In this document: positions 38,009 to 58,908 of the stretch, in pieces
Layout of the letters: every line of letters begins with the position of its first letter
Position numbering within the stretch: position 1 is the stretch's first letter
DNA from: an uncultured Gammaproteobacteria bacterium
GTDB taxonomy: Bacteria; Patescibacteriota; Patescibacteriia; Magasanikbacterales; GWA2-37-8
Direction of reading: 5' to 3'
NCBI GenBank assembly: GCA_964355175.1
Contig: CAYHBZ010000001.1
Span: forward strand, 174,335-238,334
Length of the DNA stretch: 64,000 bases
Position numbers and translations under genes: made by a program
The notes under the pieces: generated by a model
The model's database searches: none
Told to the model about the DNA's origin: nothing
What the model saw: only the letters and a program-made list of their open reading frames with translations

Positions 38009-38026
38009 AATTTCTAAGTCTGAAAA

Positions 38027-39124: not shown

Positions 39125-39125
39125 A

Positions 39126-39968: not shown

Positions 39969-39969
39969 A

Positions 39970-41022: not shown

Positions 41023-41023
41023 A

Positions 41024-41875
41024 TTATTTATTTATTTTATCATTTACCCAAGCCATCGCGATACCAACTGGACGAAAAATAGCAATCCAAATCCAGGTAT
41101 AAAGCGGTGTCCATTTTTGAAAATATGTAAGCATACTTTTGGTAAAATTTTTCTGTTTCCAAAGCGTGGTACGCTGTTTAAAGCTTTGACCAATATAATC
41201 CACACAGGAAATTATTGGAGTATGCACTACTTTATATCCAAGTCGTTGTACTTCCCGACAAGTGTCCACATCTTCAAACCAAATAAAGTATCTAGGATCA
41301 AAGGCAAAACCTAATTTTTCAAAAACTTCACGACGCATAATCATAAATGATCCGCGAATTGAATCTACTTCCTGTTCTTTATTAGCATCAAAACCTTTGA
41401 ACATATACCTGTTCAAAATATTTGGAAATAGATGTGGTAATTTCAAAATAATTGCCAATTGATCAAATAATTCCGGAAAACGACGGGGTTGAGCATCGGC
41501 GTTTAATATACCTTTTTCATCTACGAGCTTACAGCTGGCCAAACCCACATCTACGTGGACGCGCATCCATTCTACCATTTTATCTAGACTCTCCGCCTGC
41601 ACGCGCATATCCGGATTTAAAAACAATAAAAATTCACCGGTACTAATTTTGGCCGCCATATTATTGGGCGCGCCAAATCCTAAATTTTGTTTATTATCTA
41701 TTAATTTTACCCAAGGATATTTTTCTCTCACTATTTTTACCGTTTCATCATTCGAACCATTATCCACCACAATTTCTTCAAACGAAATATTTTGACAGCC
41801 TCTTTTAACGGAGTCAATTTGTTCGCCAATAAGTTTGGCGGAATTCCAGGTAACAGTAATAACGGATAAGTTCAT
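41024..41875 (-). CDS. GT2-family glycosyltransferase
   Basis: VVDNGSNDET, NLGFGAPNN, FEDVDTCRE motifs. Confidence 0.8.
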   Translation of the reverse strand: MNLSVITVTWNSAKLIGEQIDSVKRGCQNISFEEIVVDNGSNDETVKIVREKYPWVKLIDNKQNLGFGAPNNMAAKISTGEFLLFLNPDMRVQAESLDKMVEWMRVHVDVGLASCKLVDEKGILNADAQPRRFPELFDQLAIILKLPHLFPNILNRYMFKGFDANKEQEVDSIRGSFMIMRREVFEKLGFAFDPRYFIWFEDVDTCREVQRLGYKVVHTPIISCVDYIGQSFKQRTTLWKQKNFTKSMLTYFQKWTPLYTWIWIAIFRPVGIAMAWVNDKINK

Positions 41876-41950
41876 AATTAAGATTTCTATGGTCGAGCCA
41901 AATAAATTTATTTATTTGCGAGGCCCGAAGTAATCGCAAGCGCGTAGCGC

Positions 41951-43021
41951 TTATTTTTTGAGTTGTTCCTTAAAAAAATCCACAAATGGAATAGCGGTAG
42001 GGTCTATCCCCTGTAACAAAGCTCCATAGTAACTAACATAGCTCCCAAAAACCAAAAGTTCACAAGCTTGCGAGACTTTATCTTTTTCTTGTGCGCTGTA
42101 GGAAAAATATTTTATCTCATTTTTATCCAAAACTTTTTTGGTGATATCAAAGCGCTTTTGAATGCGAGTGTCGTATAGAGCGGATTCTACCAACACAAAC
42201 CCTAGACTATTTTTATTACTCTCTGGATAAAACATTCCTTCCATTAAATGGTGATTCAGCTCAGGGATAATAAAATATCCGGCAAAACGCTTGGCATTCT
42301 CATTGGTTTGGTTGGCGGCCGCATGCGCATTGCCAGCAAGATGTTCGGCGCCTATATACCAGACACTTTTATCAAATAAATTTTTGGCCATTTGTTTGGC
42401 TAAATTTTTATCTAGATTGGAAGTGCCAAATTCAGTATCATATTTTTTCAAAACCATCATGATATTTTTAACATCTTTTGGTAATAAATTTATTAATCCC
42501 GCTTTGGAAAATAAAATCATCTGACCTACTATGGAGTAGCCAAGACCCATGCGAGGAGAACCACAAGGATTATTGTTGGTAGAAAAAATTAGTCCTGGAA
42601 TTTTGGCAGCCACGGAAACTTTGGCCAGATCACCGCCAGAAGTAATTATCGCCAATTTTGCTTTTCTTTTTTGCGCTTCTTTCATAGCCAATATCGGCTC
42701 TTCGGTAGTGCCGGAATAACTGGAAATAACAACAAGGCTATCTTTACTTACATATTCTGGCACATGATAACCATTTATAATTTCAAGAGGTGCCTTTAAT
42801 TTATTAAAATAAACCGATTTCAAAATGTGCGCGCCCAAAGTAGAGCCGCCCATACCAAGCACCACAATATTTTTTACCTTTTTATAATTAGAGGGAATTT
42901 TTAAATTTTTAGCGCACCCAAAAACTTCTTCCACCTGCGCGGATAACAACTCCAAACTGCCAAGCATGCTTTTGGAATCCAACTTTTTTATCTCATCAAT
43001 ATTATTTAAAATATCTTGCAT
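41951..43021 (-). CDS. Bifunctional phosphoglucose/phosphomannose isomerase (SIS-domain)
   Basis: Two SIS subdomains (VVLGMGGSTLGAHI, ISSYSGTTEEP), PGI/PMI-family size. Confidence 0.7.
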   Translation of the reverse strand: MQDILNNIDEIKKLDSKSMLGSLELLSAQVEEVFGCAKNLKIPSNYKKVKNIVVLGMGGSTLGAHILKSVYFNKLKAPLEIINGYHVPEYVSKDSLVVISSYSGTTEEPILAMKEAQKRKAKLAIITSGGDLAKVSVAAKIPGLIFSTNNNPCGSPRMGLGYSIVGQMILFSKAGLINLLPKDVKNIMMVLKKYDTEFGTSNLDKNLAKQMAKNLFDKSVWYIGAEHLAGNAHAAANQTNENAKRFAGYFIIPELNHHLMEGMFYPESNKNSLGFVLVESALYDTRIQKRFDITKKVLDKNEIKYFSYSAQEKDKVSQACELLVFGSYVSYYGALLQGIDPTAIPFVDFFKEQLKK

Positions 43022-43025
43022 AATT

Positions 43026-43883
43026 TTAACTTAAATATTCTTTTAAAGCCTCTTCCCAACTTCTTTGTTTTGGTAATTTAGTATTCAATAACTCCGAATA
43101 CATCGGACGCTTAGCGGGGCGAGGAAACTTTTCACCCGATACCGGAGTGGTATCAATATTAATATTTTTTATTTTGAAAATTTCTTTGGCCCATTCGTAC
43201 CAGCTACATACGCCGCTATTGCTACCGTGATATATTCCAAATGGTTTTTGATCAGCAATAATACTGCGGGTTAGTTTGGCCAAATCAGGTGCATAGGTAA
43301 TACACCCAACTTCTTCATCCACCAAATCCAAGTGTGTTTTTCCACCTTCAGTAGCGAGCCAAATCATAGTATCTACAAAACTTTTTTTAGCCCCAACACT
43401 AGCGGCTGGTTTGCCAAATAATTTGGACAAGCGAATGATATAAAACTTTCCCCCAATATTTAAAAGTTGATTCTCCCCTACGGCTTTAGTTTCTCCATAT
43501 TTATTTATCGGATCAAGTTTGTCATCTTCTTTATAGCCATCACGACTATCGCCTTTAAAAACATAATCCGAAGAATAATGAACAAAAGTAATATTATTTT
43601 CTTTACAAATTCTAGTCAAATTTCCTACGGCTTCACCATTAATATTTTTAGCCAGTTCAAAAATATTAGAATCTTCTTCAATCTTATCCACCATATTATA
43701 CGCCACAGCGTTAATCAAAATATCCGGCATGACATTTTTTATTTTTTCTCGTGTGGCAGAAAAATCCGTAATATCCAAATCTTCTTTATCCCATCCAACA
43801 ACTTCAAAATTTTGTGCGCTAAATTCTCTGACCAATTCCTGTCCCAACATTCCTTTTGCTCCCAATATTAAAACTTTTTGCAT
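43026..43883 (-). CDS. rmlD: dTDP-4-dehydrorhamnose reductase
   Basis: ILGAKGMLG Rossmann start, YGETK catalytic YxxxK, and RmlD-like C-terminus. Confidence 0.85.
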   Translation of the reverse strand: MQKVLILGAKGMLGQELVREFSAQNFEVVGWDKEDLDITDFSATREKIKNVMPDILINAVAYNMVDKIEEDSNIFELAKNINGEAVGNLTRICKENNITFVHYSSDYVFKGDSRDGYKEDDKLDPINKYGETKAVGENQLLNIGGKFYIIRLSKLFGKPAASVGAKKSFVDTMIWLATEGGKTHLDLVDEEVGCITYAPDLAKLTRSIIADQKPFGIYHGSNSGVCSWYEWAKEIFKIKNINIDTTPVSGEKFPRPAKRPMYSELLNTKLPKQRSWEEALKEYLS

Positions 43884-44027
43884 AGAATATAACTAGGCCT
43901 ATTAGATATTAATTTTCGCCGCGAGAACTGTTTGAAGTGGCGAGAACCAAAATTGCTGTCTGCAGTGAGAATAATTCGCCACAAGTTTTCGAGCAAGAAA
44001 ATTCATATCTATGAGGCCGTAAACTAC

Positions 44028-44432
44028 TTAATTAGCAGAAATTAATTTTTGATATTCGTCATAATCAGTAAGATAATCACTACGATCCGGAGTATAATTA
44101 GTAGACGACAAAGCAAGTAACACGCCCTCTGACGAAACATCCTTAAACCCGTGCCACACGTGATCGCCCACATACATGGCATCACCAGCGGCCATAGAGA
44201 TCTCCTCTTTTCCGTTTCCACGATCAATCACGGCTATCATCGTGCCGCGCTGACAGATGAAAAATTCTATTTCTTTGTAGTGACAGTGCTGACCGGTTGG
44301 CACAGTAAAATCGGTGACATAATAAATACGCTTCACTTCAAAATCAATAAAATCTTTTAATTCTACTGGAGTCAAAGCCACACCCGTGTTGGTAAAAGTT
44401 TTAAATTTAAATTGTTCAAATTTTAAATTCAT
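44028..44432 (-). CDS. WxcM/FdtA-like cupin, putative dTDP-4-keto-6-deoxyhexose 3,4-ketoisomerase
   Basis: KRIYYVTD...GQHCHYK...FFICQRG matches the RxYYxxD...RGxHAHK pattern of the FdtA/QdtA/WxcM-C family. Start chosen at MNLKFE (44432); the longer ORF to 44636 runs into the GC-rich island. Confidence 0.6.
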   Translation of the reverse strand: MNLKFEQFKFKTFTNTGVALTPVELKDFIDFEVKRIYYVTDFTVPTGQHCHYKEIEFFICQRGTMIAVIDRGNGKEEISMAAGDAMYVGDHVWHGFKDVSSEGVLLALSSTNYTPDRSDYLTDYDEYQKLISAN

Positions 44433-44439
44433 ATAATAA

Positions 44440-44900
44440 AATATTTTTTTATAACGGAGGGGATTGGGCGTTTTGAACAGACGCCCAAACTGTATATCGC
44501 CGCTGTGATCAGCCGGCCCGACCGCGATTCTTTGCGGCAGCCTGGCGATCTTTTTTTCTCTGCTGGGCGGTACGGCGATCTTGTTGTCCGTCGTCATGAT
44601 TTGGCAATCTGAGATGGACAACATTGTCGTCTGCATCTTCTGCTGGTTTGTGCGCTGTATCTGAGGGTTTCACCTCTACAAAATGGGGGCTCAAGGAATA
44701 GAGCCCGCCATTGCTGAGACACAGCTCGCACTCTCCAGCAAAATCTACATTCCTACCATCGCCGTTTTCATCCTGAATCACCAGAGAACACCCACACACG
44801 ATCCGCATGCACACCTCGCAGAATTAAGGTCTACTAGCCATTTACTGTGAACTTCCACCCTCCTTTGAAAAAACCAACGACCCGGTCATTAATTTTTTCA
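44440..44900. other. GC-rich compositional island between rmlB and the cupin gene; contains a 101-aa Cys-containing minus-strand ORF (44509..44814) or a structured RNA
   Basis: GC content is clearly above the flanking genes. It holds hairpins (TTGGGCG-ttttgaacaga-CGCCCAA; ATCGCCG...CGGCGAT). The only ORF is MCMRIVCGCSLV...CELC...RRTAQQRKKDRQAAAKNRGRAG, with GC-rich codons unlike the host. Its nature is unresolved. Confidence 0.4.
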
Positions 44901-44918
44901 AAAGAGGATCAATTTTTA

Positions 44919-45932
44919 TTATTTAATATGATTATTAATATCATCTTTCTTGGCCCAAATTTTTTCCACCCAAGCGGTATTGTTCAAATACCAATCCACT
45001 GTTTCTTTTAGACCTTGCTCAAACTTGTCGGCAGAATATACCGGCTTCCAACCAAGATCAGTAATTTTGGTAGCATCGATGGCATAGCGACGATCATGGC
45101 CCGGACGATCCTGCACATATTCAATACTGCTTTCATCTTTGCCCATCATTTTGAGCAACATGTGAGTAATTTCCATATTACTGCGTTCATTATCGACACC
45201 AATATTATACACTCCCCCATTTTCACCTTTTTCCAAAAGTAAATCCAAGGCACGAGCATGGTCTTCCACATGAATCCAATCACGCACATACAATCCATCA
45301 CCATACATCGGCACTTTTTCACCTTTCATGAGTTTCATCACAAAAAATGGAATCAATTTTTCTGGGAATTGATAAGCACCGTAATTATTAGAACAATGAG
45401 TCACCACTACCGGCACTTTGTGTGTGACAAAATAAGCGTGACACATTAGATCACCACCGGCTTTGGCCGCGGCATATGGCATGTTTGGGTTTATTGGAGT
45501 ACTTTCAGAAAATTTATCCGGGCTGTCCAATCGCAGAGCGCCATACACTTCATCCGTAGAAACATTTACCATTTTCTGTAAATTATTAGCGCGCACCGCA
45601 TCCAGCAACATCTGCACGCCCAAAGTATTGGTCAACACAAAATCACGCAAACCGCCATGGATAGATTTGTCGACATGAGTTTCAGCAGCAAAATTTATCA
45701 AATGAGTGATCCCGAATTTTTTAATAGTTTCATTTATTTTTTCCAAATCAATAATATCCCCTTGCACAAAATGATATCTTGGATTATTTTCCAAATCACG
45801 CAAATTATCTAAATTGCCGGCGTAAGTGAGTTTATCAAAATTCACCACTTCCGCTTCCGGATGCGCTTTTAAATAATAATGGATAAAATTTGAACCAATA
45901 AATCCGGCTCCTCCACAGACTAGTAATTTCAT
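44919..45932 (-). CDS. rmlB: dTDP-glucose 4,6-dehydratase
   Basis: CGGAGFIGSNF, catalytic STDEVYG and YAAAK (YxxxK), RmlB-length extended SDR. Confidence 0.9.
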   Translation of the reverse strand: MKLLVCGGAGFIGSNFIHYYLKAHPEAEVVNFDKLTYAGNLDNLRDLENNPRYHFVQGDIIDLEKINETIKKFGITHLINFAAETHVDKSIHGGLRDFVLTNTLGVQMLLDAVRANNLQKMVNVSTDEVYGALRLDSPDKFSESTPINPNMPYAAAKAGGDLMCHAYFVTHKVPVVVTHCSNNYGAYQFPEKLIPFFVMKLMKGEKVPMYGDGLYVRDWIHVEDHARALDLLLEKGENGGVYNIGVDNERSNMEITHMLLKMMGKDESSIEYVQDRPGHDRRYAIDATKITDLGWKPVYSADKFEQGLKETVDWYLNNTAWVEKIWAKKDDINNHIK

Positions 45933-45944
45933 ATTTCTAAATTC

Positions 45945-47045
45945 TTAAATTTCTTTTTTACTAATATTTAAAATTAATCCTACGGCCGCTAATTCCGACA
46001 TCAGCGCCGAGCCACCCTGACTGACAAATGGTAATGGCACACCCGTAAGTGGCAGTACCCCTACTGTAGCTCCAATATTGAGAAACGACTGCCACGCTAT
46101 CCATACCACCAGACCAACCGTAAGCAACCTACCAAATTCATTATCTGCTTCCTTGGCAATTTTAAAACCGCGTAACACTATAAGCACCACTAGCACCACC
46201 ACTGCCGATGAAATCAAAAATCCGGTTTCTTCCGCTACCACCGCAAAAATAGAATCCGAATTTACTTCCGGCAAATATTGATATTTTTGTACCGACTGTC
46301 CCACCCCTCTACCCCAAAAACCACCGGAACCAATTGCCAAAAATGCCTGATTCACCTGATACCCAATCCCTTGCGGATCCAACTCCGGATGCATAAACAC
46401 AGTAAGACGCTGAAGACGATACGGTTTTAAAAATATCAAAAAGGCAAAAGTGACCAACGCCAATACTCCCAAAACAAATAAATATTTTTTGGGAACCTGG
46501 GCTTCAAACAACATGAACAACAAAATAACCAACATAATGGAAAGTGTGCCCACATCCGGTTGAACCAAAACCAAAAGTATAGCCGGACAAAGTAAAGTAA
46601 GAACCGGCAATAAACCCATCTGCCAATCATGCAAATTGCGCTTTTTATCCGTAAGCAAATAAGCGGCAAAAAAAATCAACGCAAATTTCGCTATTTCCGA
46701 GGGCTGAAAATTGAAACCAAAAACATTTATCCAACTGCGCGCGCCATTGATAGTGGCCCCTACTCCCGGTACAAACACCATGGCCAACAATAGCAATGAT
46801 CCAGCATATACCAGCCAACTAATTTTTCGCCATTTATTCAAATTAATATTCAAGAAAAAATAAAATAATACTAAACCAGGCAACAACCCGAACAAGATTT
46901 GACGCTTAACAAAAAAATAAGAGTCATGAAACTTATCATAACCCAAAGGCCCGCTAGCCGACAAAAGCGCCGCCAAACCAAAAACCGTAAAAATGACTAT
47001 ATAAATTAAAAAAACTTTATCAAATTTGGTTTGGGTGTTTTCCAT
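45945..47045 (-). CDS. SEDS-family peptidoglycan glycosyltransferase (FtsW/RodA)
   Basis: 10-TM protein with SEDS signatures (QPSEIAKFALIFFAAYLL, VPLPFVSQGGSALM). Confidence 0.85.
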   Translation of the reverse strand: MENTQTKFDKVFLIYIVIFTVFGLAALLSASGPLGYDKFHDSYFFVKRQILFGLLPGLVLFYFFLNINLNKWRKISWLVYAGSLLLLAMVFVPGVGATINGARSWINVFGFNFQPSEIAKFALIFFAAYLLTDKKRNLHDWQMGLLPVLTLLCPAILLVLVQPDVGTLSIMLVILLFMLFEAQVPKKYLFVLGVLALVTFAFLIFLKPYRLQRLTVFMHPELDPQGIGYQVNQAFLAIGSGGFWGRGVGQSVQKYQYLPEVNSDSIFAVVAEETGFLISSAVVVLVVLIVLRGFKIAKEADNEFGRLLTVGLVVWIAWQSFLNIGATVGVLPLTGVPLPFVSQGGSALMSELAAVGLILNISKKEI

Positions 47046-47784: not shown

Positions 47785-47822
47785 AAACAAATCCCTCGAT
47801 TAAGTCGAGGGATTTTTTGTTG
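47785..47822 (+). terminator. Rho-independent terminator (ATCCCTCGA-ttaag-TCGAGGGAT, then TTTTTTG)
   Basis: 9-bp stem plus T-run immediately after the rpmA stop. The stem sequence is nearly identical to the 9800-9821 terminator next to rplU. Confidence 0.8.
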
Positions 47823-47906: not shown

Positions 47907-50900
47907 TCAAAATGACTGTGAAAACCATCCTGGCGGACTCCAATAAGTATTAACGTTGATAAAATTACGGGTATCCATATTAGTCAGATTTAATTGTGGA
48001 AATGGATTAGCCGATCCGGCCATAATACCTTCGGTAAGATTGTAGAAGAAACTATTATCCACTGACAGTGCCCCGGTATTCACCTGGACTCCTTTTATAG
48101 TTGGGAAAAAAGTATTTTTAGAAGTATAACCAAGCGAAGTATTATTTAAATTAACTGTAGAACTATTTATTTGAATTATTTCTACCGGCAAACGATTGTC
48201 TATTAGCTGGCAATTTTCCAAAGTAACCTGCGAATTATTATTGACAGAAATTACACCCTTGTAACTATCTCCGGGAGAATTATAACCACCACCGGAAAAA
48301 TTGACTGAATTTAAATTTCCTACACCACCATCAAAAACTAAATGACCCCAATATTTATTTAAACCTGTCGGGCCTACAAATTTTATAGGCTCATCAACCG
48401 TGCCGTTTAAAGTGAGAGTACCTTTGATGAAAATATTAGAAAATTGTGGCAGATAAAAAGATGCCCCTTTGTCCGCTGCCAAACTACCTCCGGCTTCAAT
48501 AGTAACATTTTCCAAATTAATAGGGATACTAGTTCCCACAACGACTGAAGAAGTGATAGTCGCCATGGCGATATTTACCGCACCATTGGCACTATTGGAA
48601 AAACTAATAACATCAAGAAGGCGTGGCCAAATATTTTTAACGTAAATAGCGCCGGTAGGGTTAGAAAAATTATCTACTGTAATATTTTCTAAACTTAATT
48701 GTCCGCCGTAATGCTCGATAGCGGTAATGCCATTTTTAAAATTAGTACTATTAATAGAAGATTTGGAATTAATTTCATAAATAATTGTATCGCCGTCATC
48801 AACAAAATCTGAGCCACTAATATTTAAGCTAGCGCTATCGGCATATATTGCTTCAGAAACAGGCAGCTGTGATGAATTAAGATTCGGGGCGCGGAATTTG
48901 GCTCCGGCGTAACTCATTTCCAAACCCTTTAAATCCCCTTTTGATCCGGGATAAAACATCAATCCTTGCCAGGACTTGGACAATTTATTATCTGACGTCA
49001 TGATAACTTTTTGAGAGGGCGAACCAGAGGTATTTAAAGTGCCTTTGATCTCAATTTTTGAATTAGGATAATAGGCTTTTACAACAGCACCTTCTTCTAT
49101 GCTAAGAATTTTGCCGGCCGGCACTTCATAGTAAGTTAAGATATATGGATAATCACTCTTTTTCAGAGTGCGCTCGACATCTACCTGAGTCGCGCGTAAC
49201 ACAATTGATCCAAAATTAGATTGTTTTGGTGAACCATTTAAGGGTAAAGCATCGCCACCACCATCTACCTTACCGGCGAGGCGCGGACCCTGGTTGGTTT
49301 GCCAATTATTTGAAAGATTGCCAGATAAAGTAGAGTTAATCTTTTCCATGGATGAATATGTTGTCGCCGATCCGGCAAACCATCCGGCTGAAGAATTTAA
49401 TTCATCCACCAAATTATTTTGACTATCAAATAATTCCAGACGCGTTCCACTATTGGACAAACTGCCAGAATAAATAAGGTCGCCGTCAATTTCATTGACC
49501 GTACGATTATCAGGATTTTCCAGCAGGTAATAACCGTGCGCCGGTATGGTGGAATTATTTATTTTATTTATATTTATTTCTTGACCGGCAATTTTTAGTT
49601 TCCATCTTTTCTGAATGTTGGTAGTGGAAAATAATTCTATATCTTGATTAGTATTGTTATAAAGCTCAATATACTCATCTTCAGAAGTGAATTGTGAGGT
49701 GCCAGCCCAAGCGACTTCATTTATGACAACGTCAGGAACTACGACAGGCGCAGTTTCAACAGTGGAAGTGACAACTGTGGTAGTGTTGGATACAGTGGTA
49801 GTGACTACTTCGGTAGTGGAGGTGACAACAGTAGAGGTGGTAGAAGTAGTAAATGAATCTAAATTTTCTATCTGGTCTGGAATAGTGGATGTGCTGAAAA
49901 TAGTAGACGTAGTATCAATTTCAGGTTCGGTTGAAGTTGTGGAAGTTGGAGATATTATTAAATCTGATGGATCTGGAGTAGTCGAGGTTGAAGTGGTGGT
50001 AGAAGTGGTGGTATCTGGAACATCAGAATTCGTCGATGTGGTTGAGGTGTCACTAGAGGATGATTCACTGGTTGTGGTAGGAGCAGAGACATTACTGTCT
50101 TCGGTAGAGGTAGTGCTGACAGGAATAGTGACAGTAGGAAAAGCACTAGAAGTATTTTCTGAATTAGATAAATTTGTATTAACCACAGGGCTGGCCGAAC
50201 CACCACCTCCGCCACTTGTTGCTGGGAAGTTCGAGGTAGCACGAGGAGTAGTAATTATTTCATTGGTTGTTATAGGTCTGTCATTTGGCAATTCTGGCAC
50301 GAAACTGACAGGATTAGATTGGTCTGAATTTTTCAGTGTAGATGGGGTTTGGGAAGCAACATTCTGAGATATTGGAATTTTTTTATTTATACTCTTGCCG
50401 ATATTTTCTATCTTACTCACTATAGCATCGGTGGTTTTATTTAATGACTGCGTTACAGTTTGAGTCAGCACTCCACTGCTGGTATCGGCTTGAGACGCAT
50501 TACCTTTATAAATATTCTCAGCGACATTAATTACGGCACCACCGAGACTATTTACCAGACCACCAAGATTACTTCTAAAAAAAGGCAGTTTTTCTGTTTG
50601 ATTTTTCTGAGTTTCGTCGAGGAATAATTTTATGGTACCGGCGCTGTAGGCGACTGCTTTGGGGAGGAGGTGGTGAGCATAGTCGGACAACACAAGGTCC
50701 TCATTCAATATTTTATGATTACTTTTTTTCCAATCAGATCCGTCCGTTGCATAAAGACTAAAAAATTCTTGATCTATCTTACTCTGAATTAAAAACATCT
50801 TATCATATTTTGTTTTTATTTCTAACACCTTATCTACGCTGTTAATTTTATAATTTTTATCTTCAATAGTATCATCACTATAAAAATTATTATTAGAATA

Positions 50901-51503
50901 ATTAGCAGCTCCATCAAATATATTCTCTAATTTATCTTTATAAATTGGCTGAACATTTATATCCTTACTTATGGCATTCCAATTATTTTTAACATATTCT
51001 TCATATGAATCTGGCTTGGGCGCGTGAATATCATCACGAGTATGTGCTGGCACCAGTGCATCAGAAACCAAATGAATATTGTGGCCTAGCTTCTTAAATG
51101 CAGACTCCTGATCGCCGCTGCGATAATCGCTTATGGCTCTCTGCCAACTATTATCACCTTTGGAATAACTTTTTTGCTCTACCGGATCCTTGGCCCACAC
51201 TTTTGAACTTTCATGCTGAGTTATAAACCATAAACCGCGATTATATATAGGATCATAAAAATGATTAAGCCACCTAGTGGGGTTATCTTCTTCTACTGCC
51301 CCTTGTTTAATCCACTCATACTGCTCAACGGTAATTTTTTTGCTATTATTTTTATTATAAACTTTGACCGCCAGACCAGCTATTCCGGGATGGGCAATAT
51401 TGGTATCATAACAAAAAACCTGGTCAACAAAAACCAAGTTTAAAACAGCTCCTAAAGTAAATAGAAAAACAAAAAACAAAATTTTGCCCCCTCCCTTTTC
51501 CAT
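47907..51503 (-). CDS. Giant secreted protein: zinc-dependent phospholipase-C-like domain, Ser/Thr-rich linker, lamin-tail domain and C-terminal beta-helix-like repeats
   Basis: Signal peptide. NHFYDP and HLVSDALVPAHTRD match the Zn-PLC / S1-P1 nuclease signatures (HFYDP; HYxxDxxxPxH). Long T/S-rich tract (TTSTTTSTSTTPDPS...). LTD core VVINEVAWAGTSQFTSEDEYIELYNNT. C-terminal G/N-rich repeats. Confidence 0.7.
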   Translation of the reverse strand: MEKGGGKILFFVFLFTLGAVLNLVFVDQVFCYDTNIAHPGIAGLAVKVYNKNNSKKITVEQYEWIKQGAVEEDNPTRWLNHFYDPIYNRGLWFITQHESSKVWAKDPVEQKSYSKGDNSWQRAISDYRSGDQESAFKKLGHNIHLVSDALVPAHTRDDIHAPKPDSYEEYVKNNWNAISKDINVQPIYKDKLENIFDGAANYSNNNFYSDDTIEDKNYKINSVDKVLEIKTKYDKMFLIQSKIDQEFFSLYATDGSDWKKSNHKILNEDLVLSDYAHHLLPKAVAYSAGTIKLFLDETQKNQTEKLPFFRSNLGGLVNSLGGAVINVAENIYKGNASQADTSSGVLTQTVTQSLNKTTDAIVSKIENIGKSINKKIPISQNVASQTPSTLKNSDQSNPVSFVPELPNDRPITTNEIITTPRATSNFPATSGGGGGSASPVVNTNLSNSENTSSAFPTVTIPVSTTSTEDSNVSAPTTTSESSSSDTSTTSTNSDVPDTTTSTTTSTSTTPDPSDLIISPTSTTSTEPEIDTTSTIFSTSTIPDQIENLDSFTTSTTSTVVTSTTEVVTTTVSNTTTVVTSTVETAPVVVPDVVINEVAWAGTSQFTSEDEYIELYNNTNQDIELFSTTNIQKRWKLKIAGQEININKINNSTIPAHGYYLLENPDNRTVNEIDGDLIYSGSLSNSGTRLELFDSQNNLVDELNSSAGWFAGSATTYSSMEKINSTLSGNLSNNWQTNQGPRLAGKVDGGGDALPLNGSPKQSNFGSIVLRATQVDVERTLKKSDYPYILTYYEVPAGKILSIEEGAVVKAYYPNSKIEIKGTLNTSGSPSQKVIMTSDNKLSKSWQGLMFYPGSKGDLKGLEMSYAGAKFRAPNLNSSQLPVSEAIYADSASLNISGSDFVDDGDTIIYEINSKSSINSTNFKNGITAIEHYGGQLSLENITVDNFSNPTGAIYVKNIWPRLLDVISFSNSANGAVNIAMATITSSVVVGTSIPINLENVTIEAGGSLAADKGASFYLPQFSNIFIKGTLTLNGTVDEPIKFVGPTGLNKYWGHLVFDGGVGNLNSVNFSGGGYNSPGDSYKGVISVNNNSQVTLENCQLIDNRLPVEIIQINSSTVNLNNTSLGYTSKNTFFPTIKGVQVNTGALSVDNSFFYNLTEGIMAGSANPFPQLNLTNMDTRNFINVNTYWSPPGWFSQSF

Positions 51504-51514: not shown

Positions 51515-52015
51515 TTATAATGACTCAATATACCAATATCCATTACTAGTTTTAATAAATGTCATAAAATTTGCCACCTTTTCACCTTTATATGTGCCGC
51601 TATAGATATAGGTGGCTGTCATATTACCCATAACATCTTTGCGCATATCCTTTATATCACTCATCATCAAATTCAATTGCCCTTTTGTTTTTAAACCCAT
51701 CAAAAATTCTTTCATCGAAGCTCTATCCCCTTCCCTAAAACAACAATTCACCGCTTCATCAAAATTTTCTTCTTTTAAAGCAATCAGAAATTTGCGATGT
51801 GTCTCTTCCGGAGACTGTACAGTAGGGGCGGTGTTTTCAGCATCGTGCGGGTACAGCTTTTCCAATTCATTATCACTATAATCGCTATATGGAAAATCCG
51901 GACGAGCCGTACCATTCAGAACTCTTTTCTGTTTTTGCAAAAACCAATTATAAGAAATAAATATTACCACAACTCCCAAAACTAATATTACAAACCATAG
52001 AAAAACCTTTTTCAT
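51515..52015 (-). CDS. Hypothetical membrane-anchored protein
   Basis: N-terminal TM (VFLWFVILVLGVVVIFISYNWF), then a soluble domain; no family recognised. Confidence 0.4.
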   Translation of the reverse strand: MKKVFLWFVILVLGVVVIFISYNWFLQKQKRVLNGTARPDFPYSDYSDNELEKLYPHDAENTAPTVQSPEETHRKFLIALKEENFDEAVNCCFREGDRASMKEFLMGLKTKGQLNLMMSDIKDMRKDVMGNMTATYIYSGTYKGEKVANFMTFIKTSNGYWYIESL

Positions 52016-52241
52016 ACTACCCTGTAAAAAATTAAGGTCCTATATCCCGCCGAAAAATATCGGCGGGATAAGGACGCGATGACAGGTGGCTAGCGTGCTA
52101 GCCTAAAAGCTTCCAAAAAAAATTCGACAAGAGGTTACTCGTTGCCGAAATCTTTTTGGGTCCCCCTCCCCTATTCATTGCACATTTATTATAGCACATT
52201 TTTTGAGAGGCTCCCCTTTTATCCCCTGTGGATAACTTTTT
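52016..52241 (-). promoter_or_regulatory. Structured 5' leader region: extended -10 promoter (TGcTATAAT on minus strand, complement of 52188-52196), attenuator-like hairpin plus U-run (52112-52158), then two GC-rich hairpins before the start codon at 52015
   Basis: Minus-strand TGCTATAAT. Hairpin AATTCGACAAG...CGTTGCCGAAAT is flanked by A8 and T5 (bidirectional terminator geometry). Perfect hairpins ATCCCGCCGA-aaaat-TCGGCGGGAT (52046-52072) and GGCTAGC-gt-GCTAGCC (52091-52106). G-rich GGGGAGGGGGACCC. A plus-strand hairpin plus T7 at 52211-52241 abuts the upstream gene's stop. Confidence 0.45.
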
Positions 52242-53159
52242 TTATTCAATGTTCCAGGCATCTTTGAGCTGTCTAATACCATCTTCCAATTTTATAGTCG
52301 GTTGCCATCCAAGCAATTCTTTTGCTTTGATAATATCAGCTTCAAAGTAGCGCCCATCACCCGCTCGTGGGGGCACAAACACACTTTCCCCACCAATTAA
52401 TTTTACCAGATCATTTACCGAATGAGGATTGTTGTTACCAATATTTATGGTCTCACCATGGCCAACTTTATCTCCCTGCATGGCCAAAATATTAGCCCTA
52501 ACCACATCGCTGACATGCGTATAATCGCGATAATATTCACCATCACCACACACGGTCATTGGTTCGTTATTCTTTTTTTGTTTTAAAAATTTACCTACGA
52601 CCAAAGCATAAGCGCCATCTGGATCAAAATATGGTCCGTACACATTAAAATAAATCAAGCTCACGGTTTGTAATCCAAATAATTCGGAAAAAATACGACA
52701 ATAATGTTCGCCAATAAACTTATGTAAAGCGTACGGACTGATAGGGTTTTTTATCACTTCATCTTCCTTGAAAGCTTCGTGTTTTTCCTGAGAACCATAA
52801 GTAGAAGAAGACGAAGAAAAAACTATACGCTTTACTTTATTTCTCACGGCTGCCATTAATACCTGTAAAGTACCGTTAACATTTACATCGTGAGTAAGCT
52901 CCGGATTCTCTACTGAAAAACTCACACGCGGTAAAGCGGCCATATGAAAAATACCTTCGACACCAATACAAGCTTTATCCAAATCAGCCGCATTACGAAT
53001 ATCTCCTTCAATATATTGAGCTCCAGATTGGATTCTTTCTTCTTTTTTACCGCCAGCATAATTATCCAGCACGACCACCTCATGACCTTCGTTCAAAAGT
53101 TGCTTGGTCAAGTTGGTACCAATAAATCCCGCGCCTCCGGTAATTAAATATTTTGACAT
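52242..53159 (-). CDS. NAD-dependent epimerase/dehydratase (UDP-hexose/UDP-HexNAc(A) 4-epimerase-like)
   Basis: ITGGAGFIGTNL, catalytic S...YxxxK (SPYALHK), extended SDR length. Confidence 0.8.
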   Translation of the reverse strand: MSKYLITGGAGFIGTNLTKQLLNEGHEVVVLDNYAGGKKEERIQSGAQYIEGDIRNAADLDKACIGVEGIFHMAALPRVSFSVENPELTHDVNVNGTLQVLMAAVRNKVKRIVFSSSSSTYGSQEKHEAFKEDEVIKNPISPYALHKFIGEHYCRIFSELFGLQTVSLIYFNVYGPYFDPDGAYALVVGKFLKQKKNNEPMTVCGDGEYYRDYTHVSDVVRANILAMQGDKVGHGETINIGNNNPHSVNDLVKLIGGESVFVPPRAGDGRYFEADIIKAKELLGWQPTIKLEDGIRQLKDAWNIE

Positions 53160-53163
53160 ACTA

Positions 53164-54462
53164 TTATAGAGTCCAATAGTTAAATCCTTGTGAAATTATT
53201 TCACCTTTGTTTAAAATATTTTTAATGTCCACCACCAAACCGCCTGGCTTCAAAAAATTATTTATATCTTTTAAATCATCCTTAAAATTATCGTGTGCTA
53301 CTACAACAAATAAAATATCCGCCAACCCCAAATCTTCTTTTTTACTTAATTTTAAATTATATTCATGTTGCACTTCATCTTCATAAGCCAAGGGGTCGTA
53401 TACCTGTACTTGCGCGCCTCTATTTTTTAATTCTTTTAAAATATCTACGGCTTTGGAATTTCTGGAATCCGGCACATTTTCTTTAAAGGTGATTCCAAAT
53501 AACGAAACCTGCAGACTATTTAATGTTTTATTTTCTTTATTCAATTTTCTTTCCACTTCATCTACTACAAATTTTGCCATACTGTCATTAATTTGTCTAC
53601 CGGATAAAATTACCTTTGAATCATAGCCGATCTGTTGAGCTTTGTATGTAAGATAATATGGATCCACTCCAATACAATGTCCGCCTACCAACCCAGGAGT
53701 AAATTTTAAAAAATTCCATTTAGTGCCAGCGGCTTCTAACACATCGTAGGTGCTGATATCCAACTTGCTGAAAATAACGGCCAATTCATTCATTAAAGCG
53801 ATATTTACATCGCGCTGAGTATTTTCAATCACTTTGGCGGCTTCCGCCACTTTTATGGATTTCGCTTTAAAAACCTGCGTTATGGATGAATAAACACCAG
53901 CTACCACTTCCAAAGCCGCTTCGTCAGAAGCGGAAACTATTTTTACCACTCGATTTATAGTATGTTCCTTATCACCCGGATTAATTCTTTCGGGGGAATA
54001 GGCTAATTTGAAGTCATCTCCAAATTTCAAACCAGATTCTTTTTCTAAAATAGGCAGACAGATATCCTCAGTAACTCCCGGATATACGGTAGATTCATAA
54101 GCCACAATACTGTCTTTGGCTAAATTTTTACCTACCATTTCTGTAGCCTTTTCAATCAAAAACAGATCCGGCAAATTATTGGCATCAACCGGGGTCGGAA
54201 CAGCAACAATAATAAATTTACAATCTTTAATATCTTGTGGTTCAAAAGTATACCTCAAAGAAGAACTCAATAATTTTTCTTTTTCCACTTCTTTGGTGCG
54301 ATCAAAACCGCTTTTCAATTCCTCGATTCTATCCTTTTTGATATCAAAACCCAAAACAAAAAAATGTTTGGCCAGCTCTACCGCTAAGGGCAATCCCACA
54401 TAGCCTAAACCAACTACACAGATTTTTTCTTGTTTATTTTTTAAAGACTCGATAGATACCAT
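53164..54462 (-). CDS. Nucleotide-sugar dehydrogenase of the UDP-GlcNAc/UDP-ManNAc 6-dehydrogenase type (TviB/WbpA/WecC-like)
   Basis: CVVGLGYVGLPLA N-terminus, SPERINPGD motif, catalytic GGHCIGVDP. Confidence 0.75.
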   Translation of the reverse strand: MVSIESLKNKQEKICVVGLGYVGLPLAVELAKHFFVLGFDIKKDRIEELKSGFDRTKEVEKEKLLSSSLRYTFEPQDIKDCKFIIVAVPTPVDANNLPDLFLIEKATEMVGKNLAKDSIVAYESTVYPGVTEDICLPILEKESGLKFGDDFKLAYSPERINPGDKEHTINRVVKIVSASDEAALEVVAGVYSSITQVFKAKSIKVAEAAKVIENTQRDVNIALMNELAVIFSKLDISTYDVLEAAGTKWNFLKFTPGLVGGHCIGVDPYYLTYKAQQIGYDSKVILSGRQINDSMAKFVVDEVERKLNKENKTLNSLQVSLFGITFKENVPDSRNSKAVDILKELKNRGAQVQVYDPLAYEDEVQHEYNLKLSKKEDLGLADILFVVVAHDNFKDDLKDINNFLKPGGLVVDIKNILNKGEIISQGFNYWTL

Positions 54463-54463
54463 A

Positions 54464-55852
54464 TTATTTATTACCTTTCATAAAAGGACTACCCACAGCA
54501 ATAATATTAAAACCGTTTTTCTGTAAATCTTCATAGCGATGCTGTAACATGCGGCGACCGTCCATTATTAATGGCTTGTTCTTTTTTTCTGATATTAACA
54601 TATCGGCCAATCCGCGAAACTGCGGCCAATCGGTAGCAATTATTACCACATCCACACCTGTAGTGGCTTCAAATTCATGACTAAAATATTTTATAATACC
54701 TTTTTCTGGAAAATCGTGTTTAAAATTAGCACTGGCCGAAGGATCATATAGACGCACTTCATTCACAGATTTTTCCAATAAAAACTTAACTATCTCGATA
54801 CTTGGTGAATTACGAGTATCGTTGGTATCGCGCTTAAAAGCCAACCCCAAAATAGCTACTTTTTTACCAGCCCAGTCAAATTGAGAATCTTTTTCGGCTC
54901 TGGCTAAAAATAACTCCAACTGACGTTTATTGGATAAATAAGTTTCATCCACCATGGCGGCATTTACTCCGGAAGTTTGCAATTGATGAGAAAGAGAACG
55001 GGCGTCTTTTATAAAACAACTGCCGCCGGAATACAAACTATTATAAAATCCCCACTCTCCAATACGATTATCAGTAGTCAAAATTTTTCTAATATTTTCA
55101 AACTTTAAATCACTAAAAGTTTCACAGGTACGGCCAATCACATCAAAACAAACTGTCAATTTATTAAATAAGTAAAAATTGGCCAATAATTTTCCAGCCG
55201 CGGCCTCTTTGGGATTTACTTCAATATACTGAACGGTCGGCGCATCATAGAAACGCTGATAGATCTGACGCATTATTGCAAACTCTTTGGCTTCCCACGC
55301 TCCTACTACCACTCTGTCCGGACGCATCGAACCTTGAATCGCCTTGCCCTCTACCAAAAATTCAGGATTGGAGACTACTCCATAGTTCTCTACTCCTTCT
55401 TTGTCCATAATTTGCTTGGTTCTGTCTACCATATCTATAGGCACAGTGCTCTTATTTACAATCACGATATAATTTTTTTGACTGCCTTCATTTCTTTTAA
55501 CCAATATTTGAGCCAAATCTTTGGCGGCGTTAAAATAATAACTTAGATCGCTCTCACCGGTTTCACCAATTTCCGGCGTTGGCAAGCACATAAATACGGC
55601 TTGCGCCTGCTCTAAAAACTCTTCCATTTTGGCTTTATCTGTGGTAAAATTGATTCGTTGTTTGTTACGAATTAAAAGATCGCCTAACCCTTCTTCAAAG
55701 AGGCAGGACTCGATAGTTTCGCGGTCTTCAGAACCGATCATTTTTATTCTACTAACATCAATATCATACACTAACACATCATGTCCACTAGCAGCAGAAA
55801 CCGCAGCTGAACATGCTCCCACAAAACCGGCACCAATATATAGAATCTTCAT
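54464..55852 (-). CDS. UDP-glucose 6-dehydrogenase family
   Basis: ILYIGAGFVG, NPEFLVEGKAI, catalytic GGSCFIKD; 462 aa. Confidence 0.8.
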   Translation of the reverse strand: MKILYIGAGFVGACSAAVSAASGHDVLVYDIDVSRIKMIGSEDRETIESCLFEEGLGDLLIRNKQRINFTTDKAKMEEFLEQAQAVFMCLPTPEIGETGESDLSYYFNAAKDLAQILVKRNEGSQKNYIVIVNKSTVPIDMVDRTKQIMDKEGVENYGVVSNPEFLVEGKAIQGSMRPDRVVVGAWEAKEFAIMRQIYQRFYDAPTVQYIEVNPKEAAAGKLLANFYLFNKLTVCFDVIGRTCETFSDLKFENIRKILTTDNRIGEWGFYNSLYSGGSCFIKDARSLSHQLQTSGVNAAMVDETYLSNKRQLELFLARAEKDSQFDWAGKKVAILGLAFKRDTNDTRNSPSIEIVKFLLEKSVNEVRLYDPSASANFKHDFPEKGIIKYFSHEFEATTGVDVVIIATDWPQFRGLADMLISEKKNKPLIMDGRRMLQHRYEDLQKNGFNIIAVGSPFMKGNK

Positions 55853-55921
55853 AACCTAATTATTTTTCTTAAAAGATACACTAATTATAGCGCCAAAATT
55901 GCCTCAAGTCAACCACCCATT

Positions 55922-57046
55922 ATGAACAAAAATATATTGATTATCGTAACCAAAGGAGATACCGGCGGCGCTCAACAGTCGGTGTTTAATCTCTCTAAAG
56001 GCCTAAAGGACAGCGGTCAAAGGGTAACAGTCGGCTTTGGCGAAGGTGATTTTTTAAAAAATAAACTACAGGCTGAAAATATTCCATTTCATCAGTTTGA
56101 ATATTTAAAAAGAACAAAAAACCCTTTCATTAACCTTCTCTTTATTTGGGAAATGAAAAAATACCTAGAAAAAAATCGATTTACTACCGTTCATTTTAAC
56201 AGCTCCAACGCCTTACTCGGCGCTATTGGCGCTAAACTAACAAAAGACAGACCAAAAACCGTCTTTACCTTTAGAGGCTTATCTTTGATAGATAAAAATT
56301 ATACTTCCAAATTTTTATACAAATCACTATTTTATCTATACTTTAAAATATTACTGAATTTCGTGGACAGCCAAATTTATGTAAGTAGAGAAAACCAAAA
56401 ATACTGCCAAAAAATTGGTCTAGCCAAGAACGATTCAACGATTTACAATGGCCTGCCGACTTTAAAATTTCTTACAAAGGAAACCGCCCGTCAATACCTT
56501 TCCAAAATTTCTGAGCAGGATTTATCCAGTGATTTTATTATCGGCTCAGTCGGACGTCTGGCCTATCAAAAAAATTATGAATTTTTGATTGAAGCTGCAC
56601 TAGAAATTATAAAAACCAATCCTGCTGTAAAAATAGTAATCATCGGCGAAGGTACGGAAAGAAAAAAATACAACGAATTGATTAAAAGTCTTGGCCTTGA
56701 AAATAAAATACTGCTAATTGGCGACCAACCTGATGCTTACCGATTTTTAAAGGCCTTTGACCTATTTGTTCTCACTTCTCGATACGAAGGCATGTCTATA
56801 ACCTTAATCGAAGCGATGCAAGCCGGTCTACCAATATTAACTACCGACGTAGGTGGGGCCAAAGAAATGTTAAATAACGAACAGATGATTTATGAGCTTG
56901 ATAATAAACCAGAATTTTTGGATAAATTAAATATTTTAACACTAAATCAACCGACGCGGGAGGCGGCTTCCTTACAGACTAAAACCGAATCACAAAAATT
57001 TTATATCAAAAATACTGTCGACTCTTATTTAAAAATATATCAATAA
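55922..57046 (+). CDS. GT4-family glycosyltransferase
   Basis: GT-B layout with the C-terminal SRYEGMSITLIEAMQAGLPILTTDVGG E-x7-E region. Confidence 0.85.
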   Translation: MNKNILIIVTKGDTGGAQQSVFNLSKGLKDSGQRVTVGFGEGDFLKNKLQAENIPFHQFEYLKRTKNPFINLLFIWEMKKYLEKNRFTTVHFNSSNALLGAIGAKLTKDRPKTVFTFRGLSLIDKNYTSKFLYKSLFYLYFKILLNFVDSQIYVSRENQKYCQKIGLAKNDSTIYNGLPTLKFLTKETARQYLSKISEQDLSSDFIIGSVGRLAYQKNYEFLIEAALEIIKTNPAVKIVIIGEGTERKKYNELIKSLGLENKILLIGDQPDAYRFLKAFDLFVLTSRYEGMSITLIEAMQAGLPILTTDVGGAKEMLNNEQMIYELDNKPEFLDKLNILTLNQPTREAASLQTKTESQKFYIKNTVDSYLKIYQ

Positions 57047-57048
57047 AT

Positions 57049-58908
57049 ATGTGCGGGATTGCTGGAAAATTATATTTTAAACAAAATCGCGGCATAGCCA
57101 AAGAAGAAATTCGCGCAATGACTGACGCGATACACCATCGCGGGCCAGATGACACCGGAATTTTTATTGACCAAAATCTAGGATTAGGACACTGCCGTTT
57201 ATCAATTATTGATCTATCCAGCGCCGGACACCAGCCTATGGGTTCGAGTGACGAAAAAACTTGGATTACTTTTAACGGCGAGATATATAACTTTTTGGAT
57301 CTAAAAAAAGAACTCGAAGCGGACGGTATCCAATTCCACTCCAATACTGATACGGAAATCATAATTTACTTATACCGTAAATACGGAGTTGATTGTCTAA
57401 AAAAATTACGCGGCATGTTTGCTTTTGCTATTTGGGACAAAGATAAAAGAGAATTATTTGTGGCCCGCGACCGAGTGGGTAAAAAACCGATAAAATACTA
57501 CTACGACAAAAACATATTTATATTTGCTTCTGAATTAAAAGCGATTTTAAAAAATAAAGAAGTCAAAAAAGAAATTGACTATTCGGCGATCGATCAATAC
57601 CTTACTTTTGGCTATGTCCCAACACCAAAAACCGGTTATAAAAATATTTATAAATTAGAACCGGCCAACTACATGATAGTAAACGAATCCGGCAAAGTTA
57701 TCAAAAAACAGTATTGGGATATAGATTTTTCACAAAAATTAAACCTGGATGAGACGGAATGGGAAAATAAAATTTTAAATAAACTTCAAGAATCAATAAA
57801 AATAAGACTGATGGCCGATGTGCCGCTGGGGGCTCATTTGTCTGGCGGCGTTGATTCTAGTTTGATAGTAGCCTTGATGTCTGAACAAATGTCACAAAGG
57901 GTGAAAACATTTTCGATTGGCTTTGAAGAAAAGAGTTACGACGAAACAAAATATGCCCGTCTGGTAGCTAAAAAATATAATACTGAACACACAGAGGTAT
58001 TTATCAAACCAGATGTCGCCACAATAATTCCTGCACTTGCCAATCAATACGAAGAACCATTTGCTGACAATTCTGCTTTGCCCACCTGGTATCTATGCCA
58101 AGCGACCAAACAAAAATTGACTGTGGCGCTAAATGGGGACGGTGGTGATGAAAATTTCGCCGGCTACAAACGCTACGAAATGATGAAATTTTATAATGCT
58201 CTAAAATATTTACCAGCAAAAAATATCAACGGCAAAATTTCGGAAATAATTTATAAGACTACCGGCATAAAAAATTTCTTACGCCTGAAACAGGTGCTGA
58301 TAAATCTAAATTTAGATCCTATAAATTTTTATACCAATAATACCGCTCATTTTAGCGACGAAGATAAAATTGTTTTATACAGTGATGATTTTAAAAAAAA
58401 TATTGGCCAGCACGAAATGCCTTATAAAAAAATATTCGAACAAACAACAAAATTAGAATGGTTGGATAAATTTTTATATTTAGGGATAAAATCCCACCTA
58501 CCAGATGACCTTATACCAAAAGTAGACATTTCCTCTATGGCGTTTGGCTTGGAAATCCGCTCCCCATTACTTGATCATGAATTAATGGAACTGGCCGCGC
58601 AGATGCCAAGCGCGTTAAAAATCAAAGGCTTAAACAAAAAATACTTGCTCAAAAAAATTGCCTATAAATACCTACCAAAAGAATGTATCGACAGACCAAA
58701 GCAAGGATTTGATGCCCCACTTGAATTTTGGTTTAAAAACAACTTAAAAAATTTCTTCTTGGAATCTAATATAATAAACGAACTGGTTCAAATAGGACTA
58801 AACAAAAAATATCTTGAAGACATAATTGACGATAATTCATCAAAGATGTTCAACCATTCTAAAAAGATTTGGAATTTGATAATGTTGGCTAATTGGTTAA
58901 AAATATGA
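57049..58908 (+). CDS. asnB: Asparagine synthase (glutamine-hydrolysing), polysaccharide-locus type (WbpS-like amidotransferase)
   Basis: MCGIAG N-terminal nucleophile, PP-loop SGGVDSS, and overall AsnB length. Confidence 0.9.
   Translation: MCGIAGKLYFKQNRGIAKEEIRAMTDAIHHRGPDDTGIFIDQNLGLGHCRLSIIDLSSAGHQPMGSSDEKTWITFNGEIYNFLDLKKELEADGIQFHSNTDTEIIIYLYRKYGVDCLKKLRGMFAFAIWDKDKRELFVARDRVGKKPIKYYYDKNIFIFASELKAILKNKEVKKEIDYSAIDQYLTFGYVPTPKTGYKNIYKLEPANYMIVNESGKVIKKQYWDIDFSQKLNLDETEWENKILNKLQESIKIRLMADVPLGAHLSGGVDSSLIVALMSEQMSQRVKTFSIGFEEKSYDETKYARLVAKKYNTEHTEVFIKPDVATIIPALANQYEEPFADNSALPTWYLCQATKQKLTVALNGDGGDENFAGYKRYEMMKFYNALKYLPAKNINGKISEIIYKTTGIKNFLRLKQVLINLNLDPINFYTNNTAHFSDEDKIVLYSDDFKKNIGQHEMPYKKIFEQTTKLEWLDKFLYLGIKSHLPDDLIPKVDISSMAFGLEIRSPLLDHELMELAAQMPSALKIKGLNKKYLLKKIAYKYLPKECIDRPKQGFDAPLEFWFKNNLKNFFLESNIINELVQIGLNKKYLEDIIDDNSSKMFNHSKKIWNLIMLANWLKI

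Follow-up and report, generated by a model that had tools for sequence, protein, structure and literature searches.

A phospholipase C-fold protein with a lamin-tail domain and a beta-helix tail is co-inherited with a small membrane protein in Patescibacteria

We describe a two-gene unit on the minus strand of a 64-kb stretch of DNA (64,000 nucleotides of contig CAYHBZ010000001.1, hereafter called the window), in which the larger gene encodes a predicted secreted protein with a zinc phospholipase C (PLC)-like head and the smaller, upstream gene encodes a membrane-anchored partner (Table 1). An earlier note, made from the sequence of the window alone, had read positions 47907-51503 as a 1198-residue secreted protein, had assigned its head to the superfamily of PLC and the S1/P1 nucleases, and had guessed at a small-genome organism. 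The open reading frame (ORF) proved exact, with an ATG start on the minus strand and a signal peptide, the superfamily assignment finds support in profiles, fold and conservation at the family level, and the organism belongs to a lineage of the Candidate Phyla Radiation (CPR). The partner ORF stops 11 nt before the ATG of the PLC-like gene, and together they are one conserved two-gene unit of Patescibacteria. This obligate partner is our main new finding; neither it nor the size of the family figured in the earlier note.

Table 1. Features of the two-gene unit and its borders (window coordinates; aa, amino acids)
Feature	Position	Strand	Basis
PLC-like gene, ATG-started ORF, 1198 aa	47907..51503	minus	
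Predicted signal peptide, aa 1-31	51411..51503	minus	n-h-c layout in the sequence and cleavage-site columns of relatives
Zinc PLC/P1-fold phosphodiesterase domain, aa 32-300	50604..51410	minus	
Low-conservation linker, aa 301-439	50187..50603	minus	predicted, partly amphipathic helices
Thr/Ser-rich stalk, aa 440-585	49749..50186	minus	composition
Lamin-tail domain (LTD), aa 588-735	49299..49742	minus	Pfam LTD and all-beta model
Conserved GSPKQSNFG junction and right-handed parallel beta-helix, aa 736-1198	47910..49298	minus	
Partner gene, 166 aa, N-terminal transmembrane helix and small domain	51515..52015	minus	conserved pairing
Conserved leader of the two-gene unit	52016..52200	minus	fold z-score, covariation, other loci
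Bidirectional intrinsic terminator	47789..47815	both	12-bp stem, T-runs on each strand

The pairing of the two genes was seen from both directions. A homolog of the partner lies directly upstream of the PLC-like gene on the same strand, often overlapping or abutting it, in at least 80 of 82 non-redundant genome loci, with an exception at L035, where the upstream DNA is lacking. Reciprocally, a PLC-like ORF comes next in 66 of the 69 metagenome loci that were picked via a narrow partner alignment and carried at least 300 nt of downstream sequence; of the other three, one has a short flank and two have a truncated partner. An unbiased clustering of all flanking ORFs returned the partner alone as universal, the next families reaching at most 16 of the 82 loci. 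At one locus (L059:4913-5963) two tandem copies of the partner stand upstream of the PLC-like gene. The partner consists of an N-terminal transmembrane (TM) helix and a domain of ~110 residues with the motif TPEETxxxFLxALKxxDxxxAxxxF...WxIxxL. Eight of 37 members matched DUF4878 below threshold (best E=9e-4), two matched MecA_N, and weak matches at E=0.1-0.7 were to SnoaL-like domains and to the NTF2-like N-terminal domain of PBP5/PBP2a, so that the domain is likely NTF2-like or DUF4878-like by these remote similarities. Matches of the partner profile to designer PPR/TPR proteins in the PDB were judged artefacts of repeats or low complexity.

The family to which the larger protein belongs is very large and Patescibacteria-wide. 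An exhaustive profile search of 1.84 billion cluster representatives returned 7,494 proteins (counted as representatives at 50% identity) at E<=1e-3, of which 4,576 reached E<=1e-10 and 1,085 reached E<=1e-30. Each of the top 150 falls below 1e-95 and has the domain placed N-terminally. The 141 newly retrieved representatives have a median length of 1,204 aa; one retrieved representative, in a singleton cluster, has exactly the sequence of the window protein. When one genome per GTDB species was scanned, 551 loci were found; the best 80 belong to Magasanikbacteria, Paceibacterota/Parcubacteria, Minisyncoccia, Falkow-, Azam- and Vogelbacteria or to metagenome-assembled genomes (MAGs) with generic labels. 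The nearest relative, at 80% identity, is found in a Magasanikbacteria MAG, which places the window in that lineage. Many MAGs (L005, L006, L013, L017, L018, L027 and others) bear the title 'uncultured Gammaproteobacteria' or 'uncultured Candidatus Saccharibacteria', and a single one that of 'Candidatus Methylomirabilis', L078 being listed with them; such titles are probably placeholder or mis-binned labels and not real occurrences outside CPR. In the Magasanikbacteria CG10 relative L001 (also L002) the PLC-like gene is called as two ORFs, 7551-7952 and 8001-11177, the first encoding 133 N-terminal residues and the second the 1058-aa P0030, whose start falls within the HxxxDxxxPxH motif; this looks like a frameshift, an assembly error or a pseudogene, and similar splits occur in L011, L036, L067, L068 and L071.

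The head belongs to the PLC/P1 superfamily and, within it, to the PLC side rather than to the S1/P1 nuclease branch. A homolog search with residues 1-336 returned 22 proteins, every named one from Patescibacteria or unclassified bacteria, and among 23 aligned members the Pfam model PF00882 (Zn_dep_PLPC) matches 14 at E<=0.1, with a best value of 2.7e-7; the relative P0146 scores 23.8 bits, under the gathering score of 26.8. The window protein on its own had a sole match among PDB sequences, Listeria PlcB at E=0.015, and the combined A2 profile found none there, while the family profile recovered PLC chains only (1.2e-4 to 1.2e-3) and no nuclease chains. The predicted head has the all-alpha PLC/P1 nuclease fold, with a variable beta-sheet insert at residues ~216-266 and a conserved C-terminal helix at 267-300, and with Foldseek it retrieved 17 PLC chains at probability 1.00, nothing else significant and no nuclease. 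The branch assignment follows from the direct comparison by hhalign, in which the family aligns to PLC (1AH7) with 94.1% probability and E=1.2e-7 over 81 columns, whereas its alignment to S1 nuclease (5FB9) has 11.7% probability over 28 columns and is essentially the HxxxDxxxPxH motif; the PLC and S1 sequences used were checked against these PDB entries. In the family-level comparison S1 nuclease stood at 11.8, plant ENDO2 at 11.3 and SmNuc1 at 8.4, the next match being at 4.7.

The earlier note had left the choice between PLC and nuclease open, and it is here that the nuclease has to be weighed. In that case the head would be an extracellular S1/P1-type nuclease or nucleotidase feeding nucleotide salvage from environmental or host DNA and RNA, with the LTD and the beta-helix holding it at the surface. 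Patescibacteria also lack nucleotide synthesis (PMC11665869), LTDs occur on extracellular nucleases such as ExeM (PMC6085458), LTD relatives of the large protein are fused to PLD-family domains, the HxxxDxxxPxH motif is common to both branches, and invariant arginines sit adjacent in sequence to the ligands (R77 near H81, R156 near H154). Against these stand the hhalign result, the HFYDP motif and the C-terminal helix AGxIxLxxD, which fit PLC and not S1, the restriction of the PDB profile search and Foldseek to PLCs, and the failure of Pfam PF02265 (S1-P1_nuclease) to match the window protein, its isolated head or any of the 23 aligned members. We hold a nuclease to be unlikely, as every comparison of sequence and structure disfavours this half of the earlier alternative.

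The PLC-like head carries what appears to be a nearly complete active site. The window protein has both signatures named in the earlier note, N80-H-F-Y-D-P85 and H144-x3-D148-x3-P152-x-H154, and its relatives keep them with little or no variation. By hhalign and the family alignment, seven side chains correspond to zinc ligands of PLC (H38 to H14, D73 to D55, H81 to H69, H144 to H118, D148 to D122, H154 to H128 and E168 to E146), and each is conserved in 141 of 141 sequences of an alignment of diverse representatives clustered at 50% identity; D73 is also the putative general-base Asp. In PLC and P1 nuclease the backbone of the mature N-terminal W1 binds zinc. The signal peptidase I site predicted here, VFC|Y, has Ala, Ser, Gly or Cys at position -1 in 134/141 sequences and Val, Ser, Ala, Ile or Thr at -3, and residue 32 at +1 is Tyr in 137 and Trp in 3 of them. 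Because this aromatic residue abuts a conserved small-residue cleavage site, the mature N-terminus is predicted to be aromatic (Tyr32). A lipoprotein reading of Cys31 was rejected, as the preceding residues misfit a lipobox and most relatives have Ala in its place. The PROSITE-type PLC signature, which we take to be H-Y-x-[GT]-D-[LIVM]-[DNS]-x-P-x-H-[PA]-x-N, does not fit the window protein, whose H-L-V-S-D-A-L-V-P-A-H-T-R-D keeps H, D, P and H and differs at five other specified positions.

The reading that we prefer, and to which we give about an even chance, is that the large protein is a Sec-exported zinc phosphodiesterase that is targeted to surfaces and acts on phospholipids, the partner being its tether or a means of self-protection. 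Phospholipid would be the likeliest class of substrate because the nearest relatives are PLCs and because Patescibacteria are lipid auxotrophs. Indeed, they lack lipid synthesis, their mechanisms of lipid uptake and breakdown are unidentified, and phospholipases have been proposed to fill this role (PMC11665869, PMC8080830), including a secreted phospholipase in Vampirococcus (PMC8080830). Several observations weigh against this phospholipase reading. The window protein itself matches PF00882 neither at full length (E<=1) nor as an isolated head (E<=10), the gathering score being 26.8 bits, so that support for the PLC fold from profiles and structure, whose lack would have told against the earlier note, stands at the level of the family and not of the single sequence. 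The predicted structure of the head is only moderately confident, with a pLDDT (predicted local distance difference test) of 74. The conservation of zinc ligands that the earlier note had pointed to holds for the seven side chains above and fails for the ninth ligand of PLC, H142 at the Zn2 site, which aligns to P164 in a variable column that is Gly in 84/141 sequences. H160, four residues upstream of position 164 in a loop four residues shorter than that of PLC, is present in 141/141 and is a candidate stand-in for H142. Invariant residues absent from known PLCs are found in addition, namely R77, W103, Q110, R156, D158 and an SNxNFxSxDT motif, which could point to a different, more anionic substrate; since these residues are foreign to classical PLCs, the pocket is probably not of the phosphatidylcholine-specific type. 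Finally, no lipid-metabolism gene is recurrently linked among the flanking ORFs. Diacylglycerol kinase was rejected as a conserved neighbour, being found in one place only (L001 and its duplicate L002).

Behind the head, predicted confidence is low beyond residue 300 and column conservation in the linker is 0.28. A moderately amphipathic helix (hydrophobic moment ~0.5, for residues 354-377) is predicted at residues 348-377 (window 50373-50462); it is poorly conserved, the region shows weak similarity to the Perilipin family (E=0.089), and it could be an interfacial membrane-binding element. The Thr/Ser-rich stalk of the earlier note was found as described, with 55% Thr plus Ser and 6% Pro, and in relatives its place is taken by Thr/Ser tracts or by Ig-like/PKD domains. 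Overlapping ORFs at 49687-50367 (plus strand) and 49958-50242 (minus strand) were dismissed as low-complexity by-products of this Thr/Ser-coding stretch, their products being Val/Glu/Thr- and Leu/Pro/Gln-rich. In the window protein itself, Pfam LTD (PF00932) matches residues 590-702 over model positions 6-105 of 109 with E=1.7e-7 and 32.0 bits, below the cut-off of 34.3. All seven full-length relatives scanned have an LTD at residues ~630-860, six at 39-132 bits and P0144 at 28, and the region is predicted as all-beta with pLDDT 85-95; we treat residues 588-735 as an LTD despite the sub-cut-off score, as the earlier note had done. The C-terminal 463 residues, which it had called G/N-rich repeats, are indeed 20% Gly plus Asn, and the last ~460 are predicted as a right-handed beta-helix with pLDDT 90.6; some of the seven relatives match Beta_helix/NosD in the same Pfam scan. 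Among 62 complete genes, with a median length of 1,237 aa, an LTD occurs in 57 and a beta-helix of the window type in 43. Relatives P0025, P0028, P0031, P0033, P0034, P0037, P0039, P0116 and P0141, with LTD and beta-helix, are annotated with the Pfam family PF28492. An NCBIfam search with the window protein matched nothing meaningful, and no paralogs of the three modules lie elsewhere within the window.

Such a tail invites the view of a chiefly structural protein of the surface, adhesin or S-layer-like kind, in which the PLC-like head is a non-catalytic binding module. Its size, its secretion, the Thr/Ser stalk, the Ig-like LTD and a beta-helix like those of the adhesins EtpA, SRRP and PfbA would all suit this view, as would the extreme abundance of the family and the missing canonical H142. 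We consider it very unlikely, since the other metal ligands, D73 and H160 are invariant in 141/141 sequences across deep divergence, for which reason we read the active site as maintained, and since conservation within the large protein is highest in the PLC core.

The two-gene unit lies inside a glycan and cell-wall locus that spans 36000-47045 and 52242-60179 and so occupies both its flanks. One flank holds an initiating sugar transferase, a nucleotidyltransferase, four GT2 glycosyltransferases, a PGI-like protein, RmlD, FdtA, a dehydratase and FtsW/RodA, and the other an epimerase, two UDP-Glc dehydrogenases, a GT4, an AsnB-type amidotransferase and a Wzx-like flippase. RmlD, the FdtA-like protein and the dehydratase form a dTDP-sugar pathway, and the L27 gene sits within the locus on the opposite strand. 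This context raises the possibility that the enzyme's target is the producer's own envelope or glycopolymers, trimming teichoic-acid-like wall polymers or polyprenyl-phosphate-linked glycans, with the beta-helix binding that glycan and the partner placing the enzyme at the membrane, and we regard both the activity and these roles of beta-helix and partner as quite unlikely. The L001 unit also lies beside envelope genes (PBP2, a Mur ligase, Wzy_C, PMT_2 and GT4), the families that most often neighbour the unit without being universal among the 82 loci are glycan genes (GDP-mannose-dehydratase-like in 16, Wzy/O-antigen-ligase-like in 12, UDP-Glc dehydrogenase in 10 and GT4 in 9), and the beta-helix resembles polysaccharide lyases, epimerases and depolymerases. 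The linkage is nonetheless loose, at no more than 20% of loci against the near-universal linkage of the partner, and some units have quite different surroundings, as at L003, in the dnaA/dnaN region. Furthermore, we know of no member of the PLC/P1 superfamily that acts on wall-polymer or polyprenyl-linked substrates. FtsW, L27, the epimerase, UDP-Glc dehydrogenase and GT4 were each rejected as obligate neighbours, with only 4-16 of 82 loci. The adjacency to glycan genes reported in the earlier note is thus true of the window, and is otherwise a loose tendency that is not conserved in the family.

Upstream of the partner lies a conserved leader with an extended -10 element, TGTGCTATAAT (52198-52188; consensus TGTGnTATAAT), a G-rich box, GCAATGA(A/G)TA...GGAGGGGGA, and terminator-like hairpin and U-run elements at 52152-52115 and 52075-52026 with a U7-8 run, the second hairpin being found in the window and its closest relatives. 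The leader has a fold z-score of -5.8, and five of ten stem pairs show compensatory changes across 12 loci. It is 84% identical to that of L004 (5260-5475), is seen also at L084:1248-1452, and stands upstream of the partner gene in at least ten further loci; a search of leader and operon against Rfam gave no credible match. The leader could act as an attenuator, encode a leader peptide from the ATG inside the box, or be a small RNA tied to the operon. At the other end, the terminator closes the two-gene unit and divides it from the convergent rpmA (L27).

We propose a model for the phospholipase reading that most reasonably fits these observations. The large protein would cross the membrane via Sec and be processed by signal peptidase I, leaving Tyr32 as its free N-terminus. 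Modelled on B. cereus PLC and P1 nuclease, this N-terminus together with H38, D73, H81, H144, D148, H154, E168 and probably H160 would bind three zinc ions, and the head would cleave head-group esters of phospholipids in the membrane of a neighbour or host, releasing diacylglycerol and the phospho-head-group. The flexible Thr/Ser linker, the LTD and the beta-helix would form a targeting or attachment module, in which the beta-helix probably binds, and perhaps cuts, surface polysaccharide, and the LTD and beta-helix together most plausibly recognise a polysaccharide-bearing cell surface. Bacterial LTDs, in a secondary account, are typically found together with membrane-associated phosphoesterases or with secreted proteins that bind glycans (PMC6085458, citing Mans 2004). 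The membrane-anchored partner would bind the enzyme, either tethering it to the surface of the producer or shielding the producer's membrane from it. In the mature large protein no lipobox, sortase signal or C-terminal TM segment was recognised in sequence, and it has no propeptide that would hold the enzyme inactive. As the protein thus lacks both anchor and propeptide and the partner is strictly co-inherited, a role in tethering or self-protection makes sense, and the partner may serve as either.

The model can be extended, more speculatively, to make the pair the missing lipid-acquisition device of Patescibacteria, which we think quite improbable as a whole. Docking on the host envelope would fall to the beta-helix and LTD, the head would free diacylglycerol from host membranes, the partner would take up the lipid or shield the membrane of the epibiont, and the attenuator-like leader would control the operon; the remodelled third metal site and the arginine-lined pocket would be tuned to bacterial phosphatidylethanolamine, phosphatidylglycerol or cardiolipin. 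Lipid carriers such as MlaC have the NTF2-like fold. Patescibacteria account for much of bacterial diversity, and the unit described here gives them a concrete candidate for attack on the host envelope or for lipid scavenging, one that is abundant, phylum-wide and secreted, with an apparently intact catalytic site, a tail for targeting surfaces and a membrane partner that is strictly co-inherited. The PLC/P1 superfamily also gains a branch in which the third zinc site is altered and the domain architecture is new. Even should the activity prove ordinary, thousands of proteins now called 'hypothetical' or 'lamin tail domain-containing' would gain an annotation. All three folds are already known, and databases label some relatives PF00882 and/or LTD; in the literature on LTD or PLC in Patescibacteria, CPR or Saccharibacteria we found no description of the family, its architecture or the partner.

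Among systems already characterised, the closest are the PC-PLC of B. cereus (1AH7) and the PlcB of L. monocytogenes (8CQM), both single-domain zinc phospholipases C of PF00882, with which the window protein has in common HFYDP, HxxxDxxxPxH, the seven aligned ligands, the predicted aromatic mature N-terminus and the conserved C-terminal helix. Identity to them is only 16-19%, however, and the window protein falls below the Pfam threshold; its family has H160 instead of H142 and lacks a propeptide, and its head has a beta-sheet insert and extra invariant Arg, Asp and Trp, is fused to ~900 residues, and is encoded after a small membrane protein. The S1/P1 nucleases (5FB9, 1AK0, 3W52) share the superfamily, the presumed trinuclear-zinc logic and HxxxDxxxPxH, and in them a mature N-terminal Trp is a ligand, but the motif after their third ligand is HFID in S1 where the window family has HFYDP, and PF02265 finds nothing in the latter. 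ExeM of Shewanella oneidensis, like other secreted phosphoesterases that bear an LTD, combines this domain with an extracellular metal-dependent phosphoesterase, and its LTD has been proposed to steer the enzyme to membrane-associated structures (PMC6085458); unlike the window protein, it has an EEP nuclease as its catalytic domain, an N-terminal LTD, no beta-helix and no conserved partner gene.

The beta-helix recalls those of phage tailspikes and capsule depolymerases and of the adhesins named above, from which it differs by having no trimerisation or particle-binding domain and by its fusion to an enzyme head; no catalytic residues were identified in it, without residue-level superposition on lyases, hydrolases or epimerases. 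For the partner the nearest analogy is with the Tle-Tli pairs of the type VI secretion system (T6SS), in which a phospholipase effector is encoded beside its immunity gene. Common to both is the strict pairing of a membrane-active hydrolase gene (putatively so here) with a gene for a small envelope protein, whereas the enzyme fold, the gene order and the partner fold (probably NTF2-like) are different here and no secretion-system genes lie nearby. The alpha-toxins of C. perfringens and C. absonum (1CA1, 1OLP) join a Ca-dependent, PLAT/C2-like membrane-binding domain directly to the head, in contrast to the LTD and ~460-aa beta-helix that the window protein carries behind a ~290-aa flexible linker, and by this analogy the tail suggests recognition of glycans or surfaces and not of lipids as in alpha-toxin. 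Set against the known PLCs as a whole, what is new, as read from the alignments, is the relocated or missing ninth ligand, the extra invariant residues, the beta insert, the fusion to an LTD and a beta-helix, and the obligate partner.

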